From a virus, in the IMG/VR virus record IMGVR_UViG_3300030330_006035, positions 1 to 52,208 of that record: a stretch of DNA of 52,208 nucleotides, one strand, 5' to 3'. A program made the position numbers and the translations under genes. Position 1 is the first letter of the stretch. Every line of letters starts with the position of its first letter. Shown here one piece after another: positions 1,707 to 13,595 of the stretch. Below the pieces are notes generated by a model. The model ran no database searches, had not been told where the DNA came from, and was given only the letters and a program-made list of their open reading frames with translations.

Positions 1707-1735
1707 GCGGCTCCGTCCAGTGGGGCGGGAGCCGC
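1707..1735 (+). other. GC-rich intergenic stem-loop.
   Basis: GCGGCTCC pairs with GGAGCCGC around the 13-nt loop GTCCAGTGGGGCG. Confidence 0.6.
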
Positions 1736-1756
1736 TCCCCCCAGTTTGGAGGTTAT

Positions 1757-2521
1757 ATGTTTAGATTTCGACAGCGACCAACACGTAAGTTGGTCACATT
1801 CAGAACGTCACGTGACACCGCAGCGTGGTACGTGGCACAGTTCGGCGATGGTGCGATCGACCGAGCCCGACGAGGCACACAAGTTGCCGAGTCCAAGTTG
1901 CAGGACAGACGTGTCACCGGTGACGACAGGATCCGTTGGCAGGTCAGGCATGCACAGCACGAGGCCTTCGTGGCCATGTTCATACCGATACCGCTTGGCG
2001 GTGTCATGGGACGCAACCCAGCGTTCACATACGCACCCGACGGTACAATCACACGGACATCGGACATACGTTCGGCGGACGTGGCCAACGAGGGTGTTGC
2101 CATGGCATCAGGTGGTGCCAACCCACATGGCTGGACACTAGGTATCGCAGTGATCGGTGCTTGGTCAGAGACGAACGAGCGGGTGCACATGCATGCGGCC
2201 AACGACTTCGTACCTGACGAGCACAACTGGGACAACCTTGTGTTCCCTGACCAGTTTGGTCGACCACGACTGGACGATGGCACGCTCCTACCCATGGAGC
2301 CGTTCAGTACATACAAGTACATCGAGCCCAGTGACGACGAACCGTTCGGATACTGGGTGACCGATGTGCCAGGGTCATACGTACCACAACCCCGACGATC
2401 CACGAACGGGTGGGGTGTGCACCTCGATGAGGATGACATGTACGCCATGACCAACCAACGCAAGTGTCTCGACGATGATGTCGCAGACCTTGACGAGACC
2501 GATGATACTCACGGTGAGTGA
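1757..2521 (+). CDS. Hypothetical protein (254 aa) with an acidic C-terminus.
   Basis: RBS GGAGG at 1748-1752. Protein-like composition, whereas the antisense ORF 1753-2463 is S/R/C-rich. Confidence 0.7.
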   Translation: MFRFRQRPTRKLVTFRTSRDTAAWYVAQFGDGAIDRARRGTQVAESKLQDRRVTGDDRIRWQVRHAQHEAFVAMFIPIPLGGVMGRNPAFTYAPDGTITRTSDIRSADVANEGVAMASGGANPHGWTLGIAVIGAWSETNERVHMHAANDFVPDEHNWDNLVFPDQFGRPRLDDGTLLPMEPFSTYKYIEPSDDEPFGYWVTDVPGSYVPQPRRSTNGWGVHLDEDDMYAMTNQRKCLDDDVADLDETDDTHGE

Positions 2522-2609
2522 GTCGGTATTGGGGAGCATGCCCCCGCGTTCCGCGGGGCACGCACCCCAGCAGTTTGTTTGTTTTAGTTACAAGAAAGGT
2601 AGGTGTCAT

Positions 2610-3083
2610 ATGACACATCTCAAAATGCAATCGCTTCGATCTTCTCGTTCAACCAGTGGTGGACTGCCACCCTATGTGATGACCAATGAGGAAAAGGCTT
2701 CATTCAAAGACCAGATCCAATACGGAACTGACTCAGATGGTAACTGGTTCATGGTGTTGCCTCCGATCCCATTGCGTCCCGGTAACCGTGGTGAGACTGG
2801 TAAGTCAGCCGGTCTGTGTTCCATCAATCAGTGGGACTCGGAGAAGAAGCAACAACGTGACATCATCATTGCCGATGGTGACAGCATCACTGGTGTTGAG
2901 TCGATGATCGTCATGTCACTCAATGTGGCAGCAGTGGCGAAGAACGGGAAGACCTTCCCGAACTTCAATGAACTGCGACAACCAGCGCAGTCTGAACCAG
3001 ATGCAACCAGCAACGCCACCCTTGGTGGAGGAGTTGCTGATGTATCGGATGCAGACCGCAAAGCAATGGGTATCACTGACTGA
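2610..3083 (+). CDS. Hypothetical protein (157 aa) with an acidic C-terminal tail. An ssDNA-binding role is only a guess.
   Basis: ATG at 2610 lies 7 nt after AAGAAAGGTAGG. The upstream part of ORF 2475-3083 crosses a GC hairpin (about 2531-2570). Confidence 0.55.
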   Translation: MTHLKMQSLRSSRSTSGGLPPYVMTNEEKASFKDQIQYGTDSDGNWFMVLPPIPLRPGNRGETGKSAGLCSINQWDSEKKQQRDIIIADGDSITGVESMIVMSLNVAAVAKNGKTFPNFNELRQPAQSEPDATSNATLGGGVADVSDADRKAMGITD

Positions 3084-3188
3084 TACCCATCAGATGATCT
3101 CGTCTTTGAGCCCTGCCGGTATGATACGGCGTAACGTGACACCAGGTGAAAGTCACGAGGGACCAGGCGAGACGTCTGTCTACCCCCC

Positions 3189-3228
3189 TGACTCCCCTCC
3201 ACTCCGGTGGAGGGTGAGTCTTTTTTTT
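3189..3228 (+). terminator. Rho-independent terminator.
   Basis: GACTC-CCCTCCAC / TCCG loop / GTGGAGGG-TGAGTC followed by T8. Confidence 0.85.
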
Positions 3229-3243
3229 ACGGAGTGAAACACC

Positions 3244-3510
3244 ATGATCAAGATTACCTACGGAATCGGCAGAGCCGTGAAGTCACACATGCAGGCTGCA
3301 TCAATGGCCCATGCTCTGCTGACTGACAATCCGCACAACTGGGTGCGTATACAAAATGCAGATGCAGATTGGGCACGCATCATGCACACACACCCAGACA
3401 ACACAGTCCACACTTTCAGTGAGGGCTCAACCAAGGACGTCGACGCTGATCTCCAAGCCCTGGAGAATCACGATCGGCAGAACCCGATGCTTCCTGAGGA
3501 TCGGGGATAA
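3244..3510 (+). CDS. Hypothetical protein (88 aa).
   Basis: ORF bounded by the terminator at 3189-3228 and a GC hairpin at about 3512-3547. Confidence 0.6.
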   Translation: MIKITYGIGRAVKSHMQAASMAHALLTDNPHNWVRIQNADADWARIMHTHPDNTVHTFSEGSTKDVDADLQALENHDRQNPMLPEDRG

Positions 3511-3718
3511 CACACACGAGGCCGCGCTTCGCGCCTCGTGCGTGTCAACAGGCAGTGATGACAAGATCTTGACAGGTTCCTTGATCTGTAAGGATGATCG
3601 GCAGAACCCCGACGGCGTTGCCGGTGGACGGGTGATGCCTAGTCTCCACGTCATCACTGTCATTTACACCTCTCATGGTGGGAGGTGCGACATCTTATTT
3701 CTCTGCAGGAGATAACCC

Positions 3719-3994
3719 ATGAGCGATTGCTCTGTATCGTTTGGCGACCTCGTCAAGAAATACTCTTCACCCGTTGACTCAAAGCGAGTCGAGATCGGCG
3801 CCGCTGCCGGTAACAAACTCCGTGAACTCAACACGGCCATCCAAGGTTGTCAGTGTGAACTGGCTGACTACCAAGGAAAGAAAGACAAACTCGTTGCTCT
3901 TGTCCAAGCGGTAGAGTCGACTGATTCCGAGGCCAGTCTTGTTGCCCTCGGCCAGCACCTGGGTCTGGTCAAACCCACGGAGGGATGTGACTAA
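3719..3994 (+). CDS. Hypothetical protein (91 aa), first gene of the Ubl operon.
   Basis: RBS AGGAGA at 3706-3711. Its stop overlaps the Ubl start (TAATG). Confidence 0.65.
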   Translation: MSDCSVSFGDLVKKYSSPVDSKRVEIGAAAGNKLRELNTAIQGCQCELADYQGKKDKLVALVQAVESTDSEASLVALGQHLGLVKPTEGCD

Positions 3995-4212
3995 TGATCA
4001 CTGTCAAACTCCTGGACTCGTCAGCCACTGGCGGCACTCGCAATGTCGAGGTCTCCACTGGCACGACTGTGTCCCAGCTCATCAGCGCACACACTGGTGC
4101 CAACCCTGAATCCTGCATGGTCCGTGTGAACCGTGCAACCGCAGACCTGGAGACTATCATCACCGATGGCGACCGGGTGACCGTCACGCCCACCAACATC
4201 AAGGGCGCCTGA
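3994..4212 (+). CDS. Ubiquitin-like beta-grasp protein of ThiS/MoaD type (72 aa).
   Basis: MITVKL...TVSQLI...VRVNRATADLETIITDGDRVTVTPTNIKGA shows the classic ThiS/MoaD layout, including the DGD-[RK]-V motif and a near-C-terminal Gly. It sits in an operon with E2-, JAB- and E1-like genes. Confidence 0.75.
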   Translation: MITVKLLDSSATGGTRNVEVSTGTTVSQLISAHTGANPESCMVRVNRATADLETIITDGDRVTVTPTNIKGA

Positions 4213-4277
4213 TCCCCCCTCCAGAGGGGTGGGGCTACTCATACTCCGGCCTCACCCCTCGCCCCTTGGGAGCAACC

Positions 4278-5165
4278 ATGAACACCAAAGAACTAGCACA
4301 ACACATTGTGCGGCAGTCTGACGGCACCACGTTGGACGAGATACAGTCACGCAGCAGGATGCTATCCAAGTCGCTGCGCAAAATCCGAATGCTCGAGAGA
4401 CAACTCGTACAAGACGGTGACACCACGAAAATCCAACAACAATGGGTTCGCTTACGTCGCAAGGTCGACATCGCAGTGAACAAGCCATACAGCTGGTCCG
4501 CCTCTGCTGATCGGATCGAATCAGAACTGGCAGAACTTCCACTGTGTGAGACACCTGTCATGCGTGAGTATCTACCGGGCGGCAAGTGGCAAGAGGTATC
4601 CGAAACCCCCCACTACTTGCAGTGGCTACACGAATGCAAACTTCACATGCCAGATGGATCAGTCGAAGACATGGGCACATTCTTTGTTCGTGTCAGCACA
4701 GACCGCAGAGCCATGGGGTCAGGCATAATGGTCTACCCTCACAAGAACTGCTATGACTTTCACAGCAGTCACCCTCACGTGGGGTCAAGCTATCACTTGT
4801 GCACAGGCGAAGCAGATCGAATGATTGCAAGCCTACGTAAGACACACGACTGGGCTGCACTTTATGACATCGTGAGTGGCACGCTTGACACATTCAATCC
4901 TGACTCTCCCTTCTGGCGCATCGACCGCATGCACCAAGAGATGAAGCGATGCAGGAGATGTGGACACGACCCGGAACACTATCGTTCACCTGCCAGGCAG
5001 ATGCACGTAGATCCTGACTACAGATCTGACGGCCCTTATCGACCTCGCTTTGTCTGCTCCGAGTGTATCGAAGCAGAACGTAGAGCCGTATTCAAAAACG
5101 CATTGAGAGATGCACAACGTGGACACCACACCGAAATAGCACGGAGACGTTATGACAACCCCTAA
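4278..5165 (+). CDS. E2 (UBC)-like protein with a helical N-terminal extension and a C-terminal CxxC...CxxC zinc ribbon (295 aa).
   Basis: SSHPHVGSSYHLCTGE is an HPN-type motif followed by a candidate catalytic Cys. C-terminal CRRC...(about 30 aa)...CSEC. ATG at 4278 lies 6 nt after GGGAG; the ORF track offers TTG at 4266. Confidence 0.6.
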   Translation: MNTKELAQHIVRQSDGTTLDEIQSRSRMLSKSLRKIRMLERQLVQDGDTTKIQQQWVRLRRKVDIAVNKPYSWSASADRIESELAELPLCETPVMREYLPGGKWQEVSETPHYLQWLHECKLHMPDGSVEDMGTFFVRVSTDRRAMGSGIMVYPHKNCYDFHSSHPHVGSSYHLCTGEADRMIASLRKTHDWAALYDIVSGTLDTFNPDSPFWRIDRMHQEMKRCRRCGHDPEHYRSPARQMHVDPDYRSDGPYRPRFVCSECIEAERRAVFKNALRDAQRGHHTEIARRRYDNP

Positions 5166-5742
5166 ACTGAACTTCACCCCTGACACATGGTGTCAGTTGA
5201 ACTACATGTGCAAGCGAGCCAGCACTGAGATCGGCTGCTTTGCAATCACCCATCCCGATGACCGTCTGTTTGTGACAGACCTGTGGTTCCCCAAGCAGGA
5301 ATGCACCGCAGCAACAGTCGAGTTCGACGACGAGAGTATCGCCGAAGAGATCGACCGACTGTCGGACACACACCCTATGGACGAGTGCTTCCGCATCTGG
5401 ATTCACACTCACCCAGGTGACAGCCCCAACCCCAGTGGCACAGACGAGGAGACCTTCTCCAAAGTCCTCGGCCACTTCGACTGGGCAGTCATGGCGATCC
5501 TTGCCAAGGGCGGCAAGTCATACGCCCGCATCAAGCATGATGCACCTGCTGGTATCACCGAGGGCAAGATCGAGTACAACATTCCCATGGGCATGTACAC
5601 CGACGGCTACGAAGAGTGGGATCAGATCCTTGCAGACAAGGTATCGAAGCGCACGTTCCAAGCAACAACCAAGACGTACCAAGGGGGACATTTCTACGGA
5701 GATTGGGATCGTTACTACGACACGAAAGGGAAATTCAAATGA
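5152..5742 (+). CDS. JAB/MPN (JAMM) metallopeptidase (196 aa).
   Basis: Complete JAMM signature: Glu in ASTEIGCF, then IHTHPGDSPNPSGTD (HxH-x7-S-xx-D). 14-nt overlap with the E2-like gene. Confidence 0.85.
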   Translation: MTTPKLNFTPDTWCQLNYMCKRASTEIGCFAITHPDDRLFVTDLWFPKQECTAATVEFDDESIAEEIDRLSDTHPMDECFRIWIHTHPGDSPNPSGTDEETFSKVLGHFDWAVMAILAKGGKSYARIKHDAPAGITEGKIEYNIPMGMYTDGYEEWDQILADKVSKRTFQATTKTYQGGHFYGDWDRYYDTKGKFK

Positions 5743-6392
5743 GTACGACTCAACGATTCAATGGCATCCTTGACCCCGACATGATGTTCGACCAGCGTGT
5801 CGTCATCGTCGGCGTGGGTGCAGTGGGCAACAACCTTGCTCGCATCATCGCAGGCATGAACCCTGGCAGCCTTGTCCTTGTCGACCCTGATGTGGTTGAC
5901 GAAGAGAACGTGGGTCCTCAGATGTACCACCCACGTAGCATCGATGAACCCAAAGTCGCTGCATGTGCAGACAGCCTGGTCATGGACAACGCAGTGCCTC
6001 TGCCCAACAGAGCCCCCAGCCCTGCAGTCAACAAGTATCTTGACATGGCAACGTGTGTCTTCCTCTGTGTCGACAGCATGGAAGCACGGGGTGAGATCAT
6101 GGACTACCTCACACGTGAGGGACAGCAGCCTGCCAACTGCAAGGTGATCGACACACGCATGGGTGCGGAGACGTACCAGGTGTGGGATGCAACCACATCG
6201 GAGTGGACAGAGAACTGGTTCACCGATGCGGAGTCACTGCTTGAGGTGTGCAATGCACGCAGCACACCGTGGTGTGCAACCATGTGTGCATCACACGCTG
6301 CCTTCTACTGGTCACAGCTCCTCCGTGATGAGGAGATGCCAACGCACATCATCCACGATCTGCGAACCAACGAGGTGGTGCCAGTTGGGTGA
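5739..6392 (+). CDS. E1-like ThiF/MoeB-family adenylyltransferase, minimal form (217 aa).
   Basis: VVIVGVGAVGNNLA (GxGxxG Rossmann motif), LVDPDVVDEENVGPQ and FLCVDSMEAR match ThiF/MoeB/E1 adenylation-domain motifs. ATGA overlap with the JAB gene. Confidence 0.8.
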   Translation: MSTTQRFNGILDPDMMFDQRVVIVGVGAVGNNLARIIAGMNPGSLVLVDPDVVDEENVGPQMYHPRSIDEPKVAACADSLVMDNAVPLPNRAPSPAVNKYLDMATCVFLCVDSMEARGEIMDYLTREGQQPANCKVIDTRMGAETYQVWDATTSEWTENWFTDAESLLEVCNARSTPWCATMCASHAAFYWSQLLRDEEMPTHIIHDLRTNEVVPVG

Positions 6393-6456
6393 CGGAGCAC
6401 TACCATCCCAGTTCTCTTGTGAAGAACAAGAAGAAACAAGACTGGGCAAATTTATC

Positions 6457-6894
6457 ATGAAACACGGAGTGGTTCTCACGGCAATCATCTGCCCGAGGTT
6501 CCAACACAGACAGGACTTCAAAGAGTTCATTCCGTATGACGCTTGTCTTACATTCCCTGGGCTCGGCCTCATCAACAGATGGGTTATGTTTAACGATGAA
6601 CCAGTACTACCCTCGATGGGCCGAGCCCCAGGTGTAAGCGCGTATGACTTTCTCGATGACACCCTGCGTGAGTTTGCACTGCTGGAGGAGGCACGCATGT
6701 TCTCCTCTGGCAGAGACGACGGGTTCAAGTACTGGTGTCATGACTCCAACATGGACGAGCGACTCATGTCTTCTTACTGTTTGTTTGACGACATCCGACA
6801 AGCCCATGACAAAGCGAGAGTCATACTGCCCAGTGCAGTGTGGACAGAAATGGTAGAGGCAAGGGTTGACGACGACGCTGACAGTACTAAGTGA
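6457..6894 (+). CDS. Hypothetical protein (145 aa).
   Basis: ATG at 6457. The upstream part of ORF 6163-6894 overlaps the E1-like gene out of frame. Confidence 0.55.
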   Translation: MKHGVVLTAIICPRFQHRQDFKEFIPYDACLTFPGLGLINRWVMFNDEPVLPSMGRAPGVSAYDFLDDTLREFALLEEARMFSSGRDDGFKYWCHDSNMDERLMSSYCLFDDIRQAHDKARVILPSAVWTEMVEARVDDDADSTK

Positions 6895-7531
6895 TCACCG
6901 TGATTGCACTGAATGCGAGCTGCATATGCAGGCCCCTGGTGTGCCAAAGTCTATTGGCATCGGGGCGCGTCGGCTCGGTCTCGAGCCGCCTGCTCCCGCT
7001 GTTGTATACATCGGCAGGAACCCTGGCTACAACGAGGATGATCAAGGTCACCCCTTTGTAGGTAAGTCAGGCAAACTCCTGCATGCTGTGTACATAGACG
7101 GCATCAACCTGCGTGAACGCGCAACTATCTACCTCATGAATGGTGTGCGTTGCTACACAATCAAGGACGAACCTCCCAAGGCACGCCACTGGAAAGCATG
7201 CATGCCCTACTCTATCCAAGAACTCGAACAGATAAAGGAACAACATGACAGAGTTGGAGTTGTATTACTGGGTGGGGATTGTACTTCTCATGGGTATCGT
7301 CATATGCTCGGAGTTAAAGGAATGAATCTGACCAAGGGCATCAATAACAATGGAGATACCCACAATGATGTGACAGTCTTTTCAACCTACCACCCTTCTG
7401 CGGTACTGCGTGATCCAAACTACATCAACGCAGTCCACGACCACAATGGCTTGATCTCCGCATGGCTCGACGGAGTAATGGCAGTACCATCAGAGCCAAA
7501 CATAATTCAACCGAGGATACCCCATGTCTGA
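6866..7531 (+). CDS. Uracil-DNA glycosylase, family 4.
   Basis: CTECELH...IGRNPGYNEDDQGHPFVGKSGKLL...STYHPSAVLR matches UDG family-4 motifs (GE.PG..ED..G.PF.G.aG.lL; HPS). TTG start at 6866. Confidence 0.8.
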   Translation: MTTTLTVLSDHRDCTECELHMQAPGVPKSIGIGARRLGLEPPAPAVVYIGRNPGYNEDDQGHPFVGKSGKLLHAVYIDGINLRERATIYLMNGVRCYTIKDEPPKARHWKACMPYSIQELEQIKEQHDRVGVVLLGGDCTSHGYRHMLGVKGMNLTKGINNNGDTHNDVTVFSTYHPSAVLRDPNYINAVHDHNGLISAWLDGVMAVPSEPNIIQPRIPHV

Positions 7532-7871
7532 TTTGAAAAAGAAATACGAGGTTATGGACTACCTCAAACGTAACAAGTCCAAGTTCTCTCACGCTTCTAT
7601 CCGCGTTGTATGCGAAGAAGTGAACACCATGTTCGATGTCCTGTACAGCCAGTACGTAATGCGTAAGATGATGGAAGCTGCAGGCGTTGCACTCAGACGG
7701 AACTCAATGAAGAAGGTGTCTATCTCTGAGATGGCCGAGGCTGTGAACTCTATCAAGATCGACCCTCCGTCCAACAAAGATCTCAAAGATCAACTCGATC
7801 ACATGGAGAAGAAGCTTGACTTTGTCTGCGACTTTATCCAATATGCAAAGACCGGTGAAGTACCCCAGTGA
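7524..7871 (+). CDS. Hypothetical protein (115 aa).
   Basis: ORF coupled on both sides (ATGTCTGA upstream, GTGA downstream). Confidence 0.6.
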   Translation: MSDLKKKYEVMDYLKRNKSKFSHASIRVVCEEVNTMFDVLYSQYVMRKMMEAAGVALRRNSMKKVSISEMAEAVNSIKIDPPSNKDLKDQLDHMEKKLDFVCDFIQYAKTGEVPQ

Positions 7872-10114
7872 CTGACTCAACCACCATATCCTTGGACATC
7901 GAGACGTACGGTGCTTGCACCGTGAACGCTGAAGGCACGCCGCTCCCTGTGCAGACAGTGTTCCATCCTCGCCGGTCTCTGCTGACGGATGGCGTCTCGT
8001 CCAAGGATCTGGTGTTGACAGTCTCGATCACTATGGTGTCCCCTCATAAGGCGGCGGGTGACTGGAATCTGCAAGCTCTTGCAGATGCACAAGCCGGGGA
8101 CACCATGGTTTTTGAACTGCACCGCAGCGAACACCGTCACCGCCTCAGGCAGTGGCTGTTCCATGTGGACACCATCATTGGTATGAACCTGCAGTTCGAC
8201 ATCCAATACCTACGTGCTCTCAATGATTTCAAGTTCGCACTCAACGGTCGCCACCAACTCATCGACCTGTCTGTGCTGAACTATCTGCATGACGAGACAC
8301 GACCCGAGCGATCGCTCAAGTCACTCGGACCTATCCTCCGCACTCACTCGTACGAGGCGGAGCAGACTCTTAAACACACACGCTTTGGATCTCCCTCGGA
8401 TCCCAAGCTTCTCCACTACAATGCGCAAGACACGCACAACACCTTGCTCGCCTGCCAAGAACTGGCACGTCGTATACAACGGGACTTCGGAACCACCACC
8501 AAAGCTTCCGCCGACTGCCTTCGGTTTTATTCTGACACCATCTGGTCTTGCATCAGGATGTCAGAGTCGGGCATCCCCATGGATAGAAATGCCATCCAAT
8601 CCCTAGAGTCGAACCTCATGGCTAACGCCTCCGAGGCAGTTCATAAGGCAAGAGATCGCGGACTAATCCTCGAAGGGGAGGGCTCGGGCAAGAGCAAGGA
8701 AGAGTTCATGTCTGCCGTAGTGGGGGAGCTTGGGATTCAAGATGATCCAAGGCTACAACTAACACCCAAGCAGGGGCTGATCAGCTTCTGTGAAGAGAAC
8801 AGGAAATTACTATGCTCGATGCTACCCCTGGATTCACCCCATCAGGAGATCCTTGCCCATGCTGCAACCCACAGCAAAGCCCAGAAGTTAGTGGGCAGTT
8901 ACTGTTTCCCTTTGCTGAGGCATCGGAGGAATTTCCCCACACAGATGGGTTCAGTCCTGCTGAGATCGCAGTGTTCAACGCCCACATGCGCACAATCGAC
9001 CTCGGATTTGACCTATCCAACATGGTTCGTGACCCCGAGTCCGGCGAAGGACGGCCAGGGTGACGCCGGTGGTACGAAGCAGGGCCGCATTACATGCAAA
9101 GGACCGAGTGCTCAGACGTTCCCTCGACCCATCAAGGCGTGTATCCAAAGCCGTTGGTGGGAGCATGGGGCGATCGTATCATTCGACCTCAGCCAGATTG
9201 AGCTGCGCGTTGCGGCACTACTCTCAGGCGACACGTCCCTATCCGCTGCATACAACGACAGCTTAGACTTGCACACCGATCGTGCAGTGTCTATCTTTGG
9301 CACCGCAGCATTGGAAGCCAAGTACGGCATGCTGTTTCATGACAACCCCGACTTCAAAGGACACGAAAGACAATGCGGCAAGAGGACGAATTTCGCAGAC
9401 TTGTTCAGATCTTCTGCACCCACCATGAAATCAGCGATGATGGAGGACACGGGGATCGACTTTCCGATGAGCGTCTTCGAGAAGATCGTGGCGGACAGAC
9501 CGAAGATCAGACCGGGACTATGGTCATGGCAGGAAGAGATGCTAAAGCTAGCGGAGAAGCAGGGTTACGTGGAGCTGCCGATCACTGGGCAATCAAGGTA
9601 CTTCGTAGGTTTCTCAAAGACCGACCGCCAGTCGGAAGCAAAGAACCAGCTCAACGAGATCATCAACTTCCCAATTCAAACGACAGCAGGTAACACACTG
9701 CTCAACATCCAGCATGAACTTCACCGGTCTCTCCCTGAACTCAACAGCCGGGAGCCCTGGGCATACATGTTCCTAAATATTTACGACGCGGTATACTTCG
9801 ACTGCAAGTTAGACCGTGTCTCAGAGCTCGAGCAGTTGATTGATAATGCAGTACGTGAAGTTGTTGAACGTGGGTATTGGGCAAGACTGCAAGAACTCTA
9901 CGGTCGTGAAATACCAGTGGAGTTTGATGTAGATGTATGCCAAGGATCCGAGCGTGGTGCAACGCCAACAAGTAATGACGAACCTTCTAGTGGACCATGG
10001 ACTGTCGATAGCGGAAGTGGCCACCCGAGTGGGCCTTTCGAAGAAGCGAGTCTATTCGTTCGCAAGGTCCAGGAGTCTTCCATACAATCGACCTGTGAAG
10101 CAGGGGGGCCGTAA
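7868..10114 (+). CDS. Family-A (Pol I-like) DNA polymerase with a 3'-5' exonuclease domain.
   Basis: Exo motifs: SLDIETYG, GMNLQFDIQYL, YNAQDTHN. Pol motif A SFDLSQIELRVAALLSGD, motif B RQCGKRTNFADLF, motif C LNIYDAVYFD. The conserved part appears to end near 9935. The last ~60 codons are low-complexity and overlap the ORF at 9933. Confidence 0.9.
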   Translation: MTDSTTISLDIETYGACTVNAEGTPLPVQTVFHPRRSLLTDGVSSKDLVLTVSITMVSPHKAAGDWNLQALADAQAGDTMVFELHRSEHRHRLRQWLFHVDTIIGMNLQFDIQYLRALNDFKFALNGRHQLIDLSVLNYLHDETRPERSLKSLGPILRTHSYEAEQTLKHTRFGSPSDPKLLHYNAQDTHNTLLACQELARRIQRDFGTTTKASADCLRFYSDTIWSCIRMSESGIPMDRNAIQSLESNLMANASEAVHKARDRGLILEGEGSGKSKEEFMSAVVGELGIQDDPRLQLTPKQGLISFCEENRKLLCSMLPLDSPHQEILAHAATHSKAQKLVGSYCFPLLRHRRNFPTQMGSVLLRSQCSTPTCAQSTSDLTYPTWFVTPSPAKDGQGDAGGTKQGRITCKGPSAQTFPRPIKACIQSRWWEHGAIVSFDLSQIELRVAALLSGDTSLSAAYNDSLDLHTDRAVSIFGTAALEAKYGMLFHDNPDFKGHERQCGKRTNFADLFRSSAPTMKSAMMEDTGIDFPMSVFEKIVADRPKIRPGLWSWQEEMLKLAEKQGYVELPITGQSRYFVGFSKTDRQSEAKNQLNEIINFPIQTTAGNTLLNIQHELHRSLPELNSREPWAYMFLNIYDAVYFDCKLDRVSELEQLIDNAVREVVERGYWARLQELYGREIPVEFDVDVCQGSERGATPTSNDEPSSGPWTVDSGSGHPSGPFEEASLFVRKVQESSIQSTCEAGGP

Positions 10115-10304
10115 GGAAGCACAGATCCTCCGTATGTTGGCACTCGGCCACGTAGTTGAGGATATCGGCACGGCTTTTGATATGGCCGTACCCGCAGTTG
10201 AGAATGTGATACGCTCTGCACGTGCAGCGCAAGTATGTGATAGTGCAGGACACACGCGAGAAGCTACCCCTTCTGTTCCCCAAGCGACTGGTGATGCTAG
10301 ATGA
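9933..10304 (+). CDS. DNA-binding protein with two helix-turn-helix units (123 aa; the start could be ATG 9975).
   Basis: LSIAEVATRVGLSKKRVYSFAR and VVEDIGTAFDMAVPAVENVIRSAR look like HTH / sigma region-4-type motifs. It lies in the +1 frame relative to the polymerase. Confidence 0.55.
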   Translation: MYAKDPSVVQRQQVMTNLLVDHGLSIAEVATRVGLSKKRVYSFARSRSLPYNRPVKQGGRKEAQILRMLALGHVVEDIGTAFDMAVPAVENVIRSARAAQVCDSAGHTREATPSVPQATGDAR

Positions 10305-10719
10305 CACGCGACCAGCCCCCGAAAAGAAGTCGGTCACTGTCGAAGTACACACGGTCAGGCAAAAGCTACAGACTGGGGACTACATTCTCTCTGGGGCCGA
10401 ATCAACGTGCATCATTGAAAGGAAAGGGTCGCTACTTGAGATCTCAAAAAACTGTCTCCACGGAGGCGACAGGAAAAGATTTGTACGCGAACTTGTTCGC
10501 CTCAGGGAAGAGACGTCACATCCCGTGCTGGTCCTTGAAGGCTCGCCTGCACAACTATTGGATCAAGCTGAAGGGTCTCTTGCGGTTGACGCGTTGATCC
10601 GACTATTACAGGAGTACGGTTGCGAGCTATTGCTGCTGCCGTCAGGTATTGCGAAACATCGGCGTGCCCTGGGTGAATGGGTAGCTCGCCTACTAATTAA
10701 TAGGACTCTCCATGACTGA
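10222..10719 (+). CDS. ERCC4 (XPF/Mus81/Hef)-type nuclease, a likely junction- or flap-resolving enzyme.
   Basis: VQDTREK ... GDYIL ... IERKGSLLEI matches the ERCC4 signature (D-x-R-E, GDY, ERKxxxD/E). Confidence 0.7.
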   Translation: MQRKYVIVQDTREKLPLLFPKRLVMLDDTRPAPEKKSVTVEVHTVRQKLQTGDYILSGAESTCIIERKGSLLEISKNCLHGGDRKRFVRELVRLREETSHPVLVLEGSPAQLLDQAEGSLAVDALIRLLQEYGCELLLLPSGIAKHRRALGEWVARLLINRTLHD

Positions 10720-12353: not shown

Positions 12354-13595
12354 ATGCCCCCGAATGTGCAGGAGATAAAACCCCCCGAAGGGTGGGGCGA
12401 GGATGCCGCACGCTGGTTGGAAGCGCACGGCATGGTGGCAGAGGTTCCAACAATTCGCTCATCGGACTACGAGTCTTGCTTGGGCAATCCGTTTGGTTAC
12501 TACCTGACGCGGCGCCTTGGACTGTCGGATGCACTCCGGTGGTCTGAGGCGCTGTCACGTGGGTCGTGGTTCCACAAGCGGTTCGAGTACTGGGACATTC
12601 CAGAAGAACAATCGAAGCCCATACTTGACGCAGCTATTGACTCGCGTAAGGAAGAACTCTCTGCCATGTGTGGTGAGTTGGGCATCCAGTCCGACGAACG
12701 TAAGAACATACTCGAACGTGAGGAGAAAGACTTCAAGGTAACAGAGGCGTGGTTCGAAGCCATCAAGGGTGAGCCCTTGCAGTGGATGAGCCAACCACAC
12801 TTCCGCTGCCTAGGCCAAGAGATCACAGGTATTTACAAGCATGACCGCTTCAAGGGATCCCCCTTGGTAGCACAGTTCGACAGCTTGTTGTACCACCGTG
12901 AGCAGAACACCTTGTGGGTGGTTGACCTCAAGACCTGTGCGGAGTCCCCCACTGACAGGCTGCAGACGGTAGGCATCGAGTTCCAAACTCAGCACTACAT
13001 GCACGTGGCCAACTACCTGTTGCAGGACGGTGTGCTTCAGAAGAAGTACGACCTACCGGAGGACTGCAGCTTGGGTGGCATGGCGCACATCGCTGTGCAA
13101 AAGCCCACGATCAACTTTGGTCTCAACGATCGTGACTTCCTTGAGGAAGAACACACGCTCAAATCTGGGCCCCGCAAGGGACAGATAGAGATCCGTCGCA
13201 AGTACCTGGGGGAACCCAGGTTCGAGAACTACGTAGCCCGATGCAAGCGTTGGTACGCAGGCGAGGGCGAGTACGAGAACAAGAAGGTTGATCGGGAGGA
13301 GAATCCCCCCGTCAATATTTCTTACACATACGGGAAGAATCTGCTTGACCCACACTTCGAGGCTGAGTACCTTGAGCGGGTCGCGCTGATCCATTCCTTG
13401 GCAACGCGTAGGGCATGGCCTGATCAGTTTCTCAAGAGTGCGAACGCCATTCGTTCTCATGGGAAGATCAGCCGGTTCGCACCGCTCTACCTTTGCCACC
13501 CAAAGGACTGGCCCACCATTGTCCAGGAGCTCAAACTGATTACCCTCCGACGGGATGAGCAAACACCCCTGGATAACACTGGACTGCATACTTAA
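12354..13595 (+). CDS. PD-(D/E)XK-family exonuclease (RecB / lambda-Exo / Cas4-like fold).
   Basis: AQFDSLLYH...LWVVDLKT...QTQHYMH fits the D...(D/E)xK...QxxxY arrangement of PD-(D/E)XK recombination nucleases. Confidence 0.6.
   Translation: MPPNVQEIKPPEGWGEDAARWLEAHGMVAEVPTIRSSDYESCLGNPFGYYLTRRLGLSDALRWSEALSRGSWFHKRFEYWDIPEEQSKPILDAAIDSRKEELSAMCGELGIQSDERKNILEREEKDFKVTEAWFEAIKGEPLQWMSQPHFRCLGQEITGIYKHDRFKGSPLVAQFDSLLYHREQNTLWVVDLKTCAESPTDRLQTVGIEFQTQHYMHVANYLLQDGVLQKKYDLPEDCSLGGMAHIAVQKPTINFGLNDRDFLEEEHTLKSGPRKGQIEIRRKYLGEPRFENYVARCKRWYAGEGEYENKKVDREENPPVNISYTYGKNLLDPHFEAEYLERVALIHSLATRRAWPDQFLKSANAIRSHGKISRFAPLYLCHPKDWPTIVQELKLITLRRDEQTPLDNTGLHT

Follow-up and report, generated by a model that had tools for sequence, protein, structure and literature searches.

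We identified a phage gene that, on the evidence of its sequence and of structural models, encodes with a probability of about three in four an active E2-type carrier enzyme belonging to a phage-encoded conjugation cascade for a ubiquitin-like protein (Ubl). The gene lies on the plus strand of the analyzed DNA (hereafter the window, 52,208 nucleotides, positions 1 to 52,208 of IMG/VR virus record IMGVR_UViG_3300030330_006035), an apparently complete phage genome of ~52 kb in which the early/replication arm is on the plus strand and an arm of large ORFs is on the minus strand. The reading frame opens with an ATG at 4278 preceded by GGGAG, its start methionine being common to all aligned homologues, and closes with a TAA stop codon at 5163-5165. 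Homologues from marine and other metagenomes formed 19 clusters at 45–100% identity, and the longest contig with the identical protein measures 52,521 bases. Searches with the E2-like protein returned no usable match in Pfam, PHROG, PADLOC or NCBIfam. Among 50,697 cultured-phage records, tblastn with the same protein revealed no relative and megablast with the first 20 kb of the window gave no match. The family A DNA polymerase (PolA) of the window is ~22% identical to those of the nearest cultured phages, which are Vibrio siphophages.

Gene neighborhood of the E2-like protein

The E2-like gene is the second member of a four-gene cassette in the order Ubl, E2, JAB metallopeptidase and ThiF-type E1, which is bordered by one additional gene on either side and followed by genes for replication and repair:

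3719..3994, plus strand: 91-residue helical protein, sharing 1 nt with the start of the Ubl gene; position kept in six loci
3994..4212, plus strand: ThiS-like Ubl of 72 residues, ending Lys-Gly-Ala (Pfam ThiS, 28.5 bits versus a cutoff of 22.5)
4278..5165, plus strand: E2-like gene, 295 residues plus stop (ORF, ribosome-binding site, translation)
5152..5742, plus strand: JAB/MPN+ metallopeptidase of 196 residues, overlapping the E2 stop (Prok-JAB, E 2.7e-5)
5739..6392, plus strand: ThiF-type E1 of 217 residues with a single adenylation domain, in ATGA overlap with the JAB gene (Pfam ThiF, 2e-15)
6388..6894, plus strand: 168-residue protein with a TTG start, overlapping the E1 stop; located before the UDG gene in six loci
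6866-7531, 7868-10114, 10222-10719 and 12354-13595, plus strand: replication/repair genes

The replication/repair module 3′ of the cassette encodes a uracil-DNA glycosylase (UDG)-superfamily protein, a family A DNA polymerase, an ERCC4-type nuclease and a PD-(D/E)XK nuclease. Across eight divergent loci, the JAB residues E26, H85, H87, S95 and D98, constituting the JAMM motif, are invariant, as are the GxGxxG motif, the Asp/Arg motifs and Cys171 of the E1. Every related phage contig examined contains the 91-residue protein, the cassette, a protein of ~165 residues, UDG and PolA in the same order, and the order within the cassette is kept in related phage contigs down to 28–32% E2 identity. Ubl–E2–JAB–E1 arrangements of more distant E2 relatives were seen in further viral contigs and in elements that also carry genes for integrase and AbiE. 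At one locus (L015), an extra gene for a 143-residue protein is inserted between Ubl and E2 (4556-4987). Within IMG/VR, one locus was recovered by alignment search and four by motif patterns; one of the latter (L010) was rejected, no E2-like ORF being shown there.

In seven lineages, the C-terminus of the Ubl consists of a glycine plus zero to four small residues (G-A, G-A-V-A-A, G-A-G or G-G). The type II protein BilA from E. aridi has Gly97-Ala98 at its end, and the JAB protein of that system cuts after Gly97 (Chambers et al., PMC10557695). By analogy, maturation of the phage Ubl by the neighboring JAB peptidase is a natural inference. Regarding the two bordering genes, the 91-residue protein has a conserved C-terminal ...HLGL...Gly-Cys-Asp pattern in six related loci and may be an accessory factor that constitutes a sixth cassette component. 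The fast-evolving 168-residue protein shares 16–38% identity among relatives (the corresponding E2s, 28–75%) and matches no known family; it is possibly an accessory factor or a target.

To locate the family beyond viruses, the motif T-Y-N-P-x-S-P-(Y/F)-V was scanned in one genome per prokaryotic species. The scan resulted in 62 confirmed loci (L018-L079), nearly all from Planctomycetota or other PVC bacteria, whose genomes often carry two or three loci of the E2 family each. Using HMMs built from the family alignments, we found the full Ubl–E2–JAB–E1 order in 47 of the 62; many of the other 15 are located on short contigs or near a contig end. The neighbors of these sister-group loci include genes for ArdC-N, DUF932 and DUF4230 proteins, which points to a location in mobile elements. 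Because the sister E2s are concentrated in Planctomycetota and the PVC group, there is also a hint at a marine planctomycete as the host of the window phage. The abundant planctomycetal cassettes represent a tractable set of natural variants.

A parallel gene order was observed in the crAss-like phage cr106_1 (L014, MT774378.1), where positions 1727-6818 contain a 434-residue ORF, a JAB-motif metalloprotease, a ThiF-like E1, a 249-residue ORF and UDG, an order that matches the E2, JAB, E1, 168-residue ORF and UDG of the window. For the 434-residue ORF, hhalign against the family profile gave no similarity, and BLASTP gave none between the 168-residue protein of the window and its positional counterpart in the crAss-like phage. 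Proteins of 370–540 residues from crAss-like phages are, however, included among the BFVD fold matches of the core model discussed below. A literature search found no paper pairing crAss-like phages with ThiF.

Fold and conserved motifs of the UBC-like core

The elements that identify the central part of the protein as E2-like are the following:

4590..4949, plus strand: UBC-fold core, residues ~105-224 (fold searches; PDB profile alignment in register with E2s)
4770..4778, plus strand: His165-Pro166-His167, counterpart of the E2 His-Pro-Asn motif, aligned to HPN of Caenorhabditis elegans UBC-1
4800..4802, plus strand: Cys175, the predicted thioester-forming cysteine (invariant; aligned to the E2 catalytic Cys)
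4896..4910, plus strand: Asn207-Pro-Asp-Ser-Pro211, E2-type motif after the central helix, aligned to NPNSP of UBC-1

AlphaFold2 (AF2) models were obtained with mean pLDDT values of 80.5 for the full-length protein and 84.6 for the core plus tail. For the UBC fold, the models show one helix (residues 77-85), a three-to-four-stranded meander (strands 113-123, 129-140 and 150-156) and subsequent helices (177-188, 192-203 and 215-223). A preliminary description of this DNA had suggested a UBC core at about residues 130–220. Such a core is present, but it is wider than proposed, spanning ~105–224. Foldseek ranked mostly E2 enzymes first, although with weak E values of at least 0.14. In an exhaustive VIA search of the core-plus-tail model against 48,161 chains, 93 had a Z-score of at least 2, and the top 47 of these 93 consisted throughout of chains with an E2, UEV or RWD fold or of complexes that contain one (best Z 5.5 for ~110 residues at an r.m.s.d. 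of ~4 Å). Re-scoring the Foldseek list gave 91 chains with a Z-score of at least 5, the best 50 of the 91 being exclusively E2s, with UBE2S in the lead (Z 6.2, 107 aligned residues, r.m.s.d. 3.2). All VIA Z-scores were below 8, a middling range for this tool. The proposed UBC fold is supported by the AF2 model and by an exhaustive fold search that returns almost only E2, UEV or RWD chains. When the full-length model was used, the exhaustive search was dominated by helical hairpins matching residues 10-75. The CBASS CdnG–E2 complex and the Bub complex scored lower in VIA (Z 3.5) than eukaryotic E2s (5.5), and Bil E2 chains were absent among the listed fold or PDB-sequence matches, an absence that is not evidence of unrelatedness.

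At the sequence level, HMMER, run exhaustively over 1.84 billion representatives, returned 27 proteins at E ≤ 0.001, most of which align to residues ~120–235 only, and an alignment-based search of a 5.8-billion-protein index added nothing. One candidate of 2027 residues (P0025), matched in six stretches, was discarded as an unrelated repeat protein. In 38 aligned sequences with 18–89% identity to the window protein, H165, P166, H167, C175 and G177 are invariant, and a G-x-F strand and L-x-T-(Y/F)-N-P-x-S-P after the central helix are shared, which corresponds to the layout of canonical E2s. The same five residues are invariant in a set of 56 sequences comprising the window protein and 55 bacterial relatives, as are N207, P208, S210, P211 and C225. 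Given this invariance across both the 38 and the 56 sequences, the core motifs are not attributable to chance. The cysteine following HPH, also singled out in the preliminary description, proved to be fully conserved in both sets; the spacer leading to it had been miscounted as eight residues and comprises seven (His165-Pro166-His167, then Cys175), as in canonical E2s.

A profile built from the 38 relatives matched many E2s in the PDB, with marginal E values starting at 0.017 and with alignments in register over G-x-F, HP(H/N), the cysteine and NPxSP; a profile of the close clade alone had no PDB match. Pfam UQ_con (PF00179, gathering threshold of 27 bits) did not match the query at E ≤ 10, and none of the 55 bacterial relatives matched a Pfam E2 family at E ≤ 0.01. 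One relative, P0033, which phmmer connected with the query at E 8e-5, scored 29.2 bits with UQ_con, above the cutoff of 27. The family is, thus, a relative within the UBC superfamily that falls outside the curated Pfam UQ_con. Overall, a predicted UBC fold with Cys175 as the putative catalytic residue is well supported: scores are modest, yet the exclusivity of the match lists, the alignment of the motifs in register and the genomic setting all point the same way.

Six further residues in the core, Trp116, His118, Cys120, Cys158, Tyr159 and His162 (within E2 residues 116-167; nt 4623-4778, plus strand), are invariant within the phage clade and not among the invariant or near-invariant positions of the wider family. 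Possible roles for these residues are a second metal site or a disulfide within the core.

Flanking modules and proposed function

The preliminary description had placed the UBC-like core between a helical N-terminal extension and a C-terminal four-cysteine module, an arrangement upheld by the AF2 model, the fold searches and motif conservation:

4278..4589, plus strand: N-terminal extension, residues 1-104 (AF2 pLDDT 61-89; heptad pattern)
4950..5066, plus strand: predicted four-cysteine zinc module, Cys225/Cys228/Cys260/Cys263 (invariant in the clade; aligned to bacterial Cys-rich tails)
5058..5156, plus strand: long C-terminal helix, residues 261-293, ending in the invariant Arg289-Arg-Arg291 (AF2 pLDDT ~83-94; conservation)

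For the N-terminal extension, AF2 predicts helices at residues 3-13, 19-46, 50-67 and 77-85 with an antiparallel hairpin. Its coiled-coil appearance, remarked on before, is consistent with the predicted helices 19-46 and 50-67, in which six of eight and five of five a/d heptad positions, respectively, are hydrophobic. Within the phage clade, the sequence of the extension is highly conserved and includes an invariant LRKIRMLE block. N-terminal extensions of ~75 to ~650 residues are present in every family member, with sequences that are not conserved family-wide. In a PDB profile search, the N-terminal part of the family profile matched chains with antiparallel coiled coils and helical bundles.

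In the tail, the CRRC and CSEC motifs occupy residues 225-228 and 260-263. Cys228 and Cys260 are separated by 31 residues, in agreement with the gap of about 30 residues given previously. All four cysteines are invariant in the phage clade, and C228, C260 and C263 are conserved in at least 90% of the 56 sequences. In the model, the second pair falls on strand 258-260 and the N-terminal end of helix 261-293, a treble-clef-like placement; atlas entries with zf-C4_ClpX align to this part, weakly, with TM-scores of 0.27–0.34. Tails differ widely across the family, ranging from 0 to 19 CxxC motifs behind the core (exactly two in the phage clade) and reaching 48 cysteines in bacterial relatives. In a PDB profile search, the family-profile tail matched the B-box of MID1 (PDB 2ffw, E 4.8e-4) as well as FYVE domains, with scores that may be inflated by cysteine-rich composition. 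A RING-type two-zinc module was rejected for the window protein, which has four cysteines, a number that would suffice for one zinc site, as opposed to the eight ligands of a cross-brace. Judged by sequence and model, the window tail is a putative form of a larger B-box/RING-like module, reduced to a minimum with one zinc site. The architecture had been regarded as unusual; the additional modules are real, but extensions are the rule in this family and not a peculiarity of the window gene.

In the cascade that we propose, the JAB peptidase would remove the terminal alanine of the Ubl, exposing Gly71, which the E1 would adenylate, with a possible passage through its invariant Cys171. Cys175 of the E2 would then accept the Ubl in thioester linkage; there, the His-Pro-His loop would replace the canonical His-Pro-Asn, a substitution with which catalytic details may differ from those of canonical E2s. 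In the last step, the E2 would attach the Ubl to a lysine residue in a protein of the phage or host, with no separate E3 taking part. Both the N-terminal hairpin and the zinc module at the C-terminus, with its basic helix, would represent lineage-specific adaptors on a conserved core, most likely positioning the E2 on a target or partner protein. E3-like target recognition by these modules, as put forward in the preliminary description, is plausible, with pointers at the family level, namely tail variation and the resemblance to B-box and FYVE domains. 

Alternatively, the protein could be a true E2 whose modules dock it on the minimal E1, the JAB peptidase or the Ubl, or oligomerize it, with target choice residing elsewhere, such as in the 91- or 168-residue neighbors. 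We consider this possible, with a weight well short of an even chance. It would suit the E1, which, as a single ThiF domain of 217 residues, lacks the usual E2-recruiting (ubiquitin-fold) domain, and the coiled-coil heptad pattern of the hairpin would fit oligomerization or docking. The two neighboring genes, both conserved and overlapping the Ubl start and the E1 stop, respectively, are consistent with target choice outside the E2. Docking fits poorly, however, with the conservation of E1, JAB and Ubl while the E2 modules vary in length and cysteine content. From this variability, we lean toward lineage-specific recognition or partner binding rather than docking on the conserved E1, JAB or Ubl, and give the former roughly even odds among the readings considered.

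Two other explanations would dispense with protein conjugation by the E2-like protein, and both appear very improbable. A sulfur-carrier system composed of ThiS, ThiF and JAB could supply the thiocarboxylate needed to make a thio-modified nucleotide or cofactor, with the E2-like protein as a cysteine persulfide relay. The Ubl indeed passes the Pfam ThiS threshold, the best match of the E1 is ThiF/MoeB and the cassette adjoins UDG and PolA in a DNA-metabolism arm. Against this, a Pfam analysis of 20 neighboring ORFs revealed no rhodanese, cysteine desulfurase, sulfurtransferase or ThiG/MoaE-type partner, a UBC fold with HP(H) and cysteine is a hallmark of protein conjugation and the cassette order equals that of the protein-conjugating Bil systems (PMC10557695). 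Hardly more credible is an inert UEV/RWD-like scaffold that binds only the Ubl or a partner; UEV and RWD chains do appear in the fold list and the asparagine of His-Pro-Asn is replaced, but all 56 sequences retain the His-Pro-His loop and the cysteine, the latter being a residue that UEV and RWD domains do not have. An active E2 remains our preferred reading.

A more far-reaching proposal, which we regard as speculative and rather unlikely as a whole, would make the cassette a third type of Bil-like system with a single-chain E2–E3 hybrid, used offensively, early in infection or in the course of replication, to tag proteins of the host or of rival phages. The tail would then be a variable B-box/RING-like recognition module of which the phage keeps one zinc site, and the E2 would be the prokaryotic or viral form most like canonical eukaryotic E2s in these searches. 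If the modules do select targets, the family would represent a natural, compact E2–E3 hybrid and illustrate a way in which an E2 could acquire substrate recognition before there were separate E3s. Offensive tagging, if true, would invert the known defensive use of Ubl systems.

Comparison with known conjugation systems

To our knowledge, bacterial Ubl conjugation has so far been known as anti-phage defense, as in Bil and CBASS Cap2. Here, in contrast to that defensive role, a complete Ubl cassette is located in the early/replication arm of a lytic-looking marine phage, with an E2 family that keeps canonical active-site motifs better than known bacterial E2s and is fused to variable helical and zinc modules. 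Neither a phage-encoded Ubl–E2–JAB–E1 cassette nor this E2 family was found in the searchable literature, which did not cover Burroughs et al. 2011 on prokaryotic RING/E2 systems.

With canonical E2s (UQ_con PF00179; UBE2S, UbcH5, Ubc13, Rad6/UBC-1), the family shares the fold, the His-Pro-x motif seven residues before the cysteine and NPxSP. Unlike these enzymes, its members always have histidine in place of the asparagine of His-Pro-Asn, and the segment from the cysteine onward reads C-x-G-(E/D)-A rather than the canonical C-L-D-I-L. Further differences are the ~100-residue helical N-terminal extension and the predicted zinc-binding tail of the window E2, as well as the encoding of the family by phages and bacterial mobile elements beside a minimal ThiF-type E1. 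The modeled tail resembles treble clefs in that the second cysteine pair is placed at a helix start, and it aligns weakly with the N-terminal C4 zinc domain of ClpX, while its four cysteines set it apart from B-box, FYVE and RING fingers with eight ligands.

The closest gene order is that of BilABCD types I and II, which have an identical Ubl–E2–JAB–E1 arrangement (PMC10557695) and correspond to operon classes 6d and 6C/CEHH of Iyer et al. 2006 (PMC1779556, PMC10557695, 10.1101/2023.09.04.556158). Bacterial Bil-type systems normally lack a separate E3 (PMC10557695; 10.1101/2023.09.04.556158), and the phage cassette likewise contains none; its Ubl also has the conserved glycine with a short extension, for which JAB trimming is expected by analogy. 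Bil E2s, however, do not have the canonical motif histidine and carry a conserved histidine downstream of the cysteine (Cys/Glu/His/His in type II; PMC1779556, PMC10557695), whereas the phage family keeps an invariant His-Pro-His and shows no conserved downstream histidine in the 38-sequence alignment. Similarly, the type II E1 (BilD) is a multidomain protein with an inactive and an active adenylation domain (PMC10557695), unlike the single 217-residue ThiF domain of the window. The settings differ as well, with Bil acting in bacterial anti-phage defense and the window cassette located in the early/replication arm of a phage. Because its E2 keeps the canonical His-Pro-x and its E1 has a single domain, the cassette is not a member of Bil; it is a Bil-like but distinct system with an E2 of the UBC superfamily.
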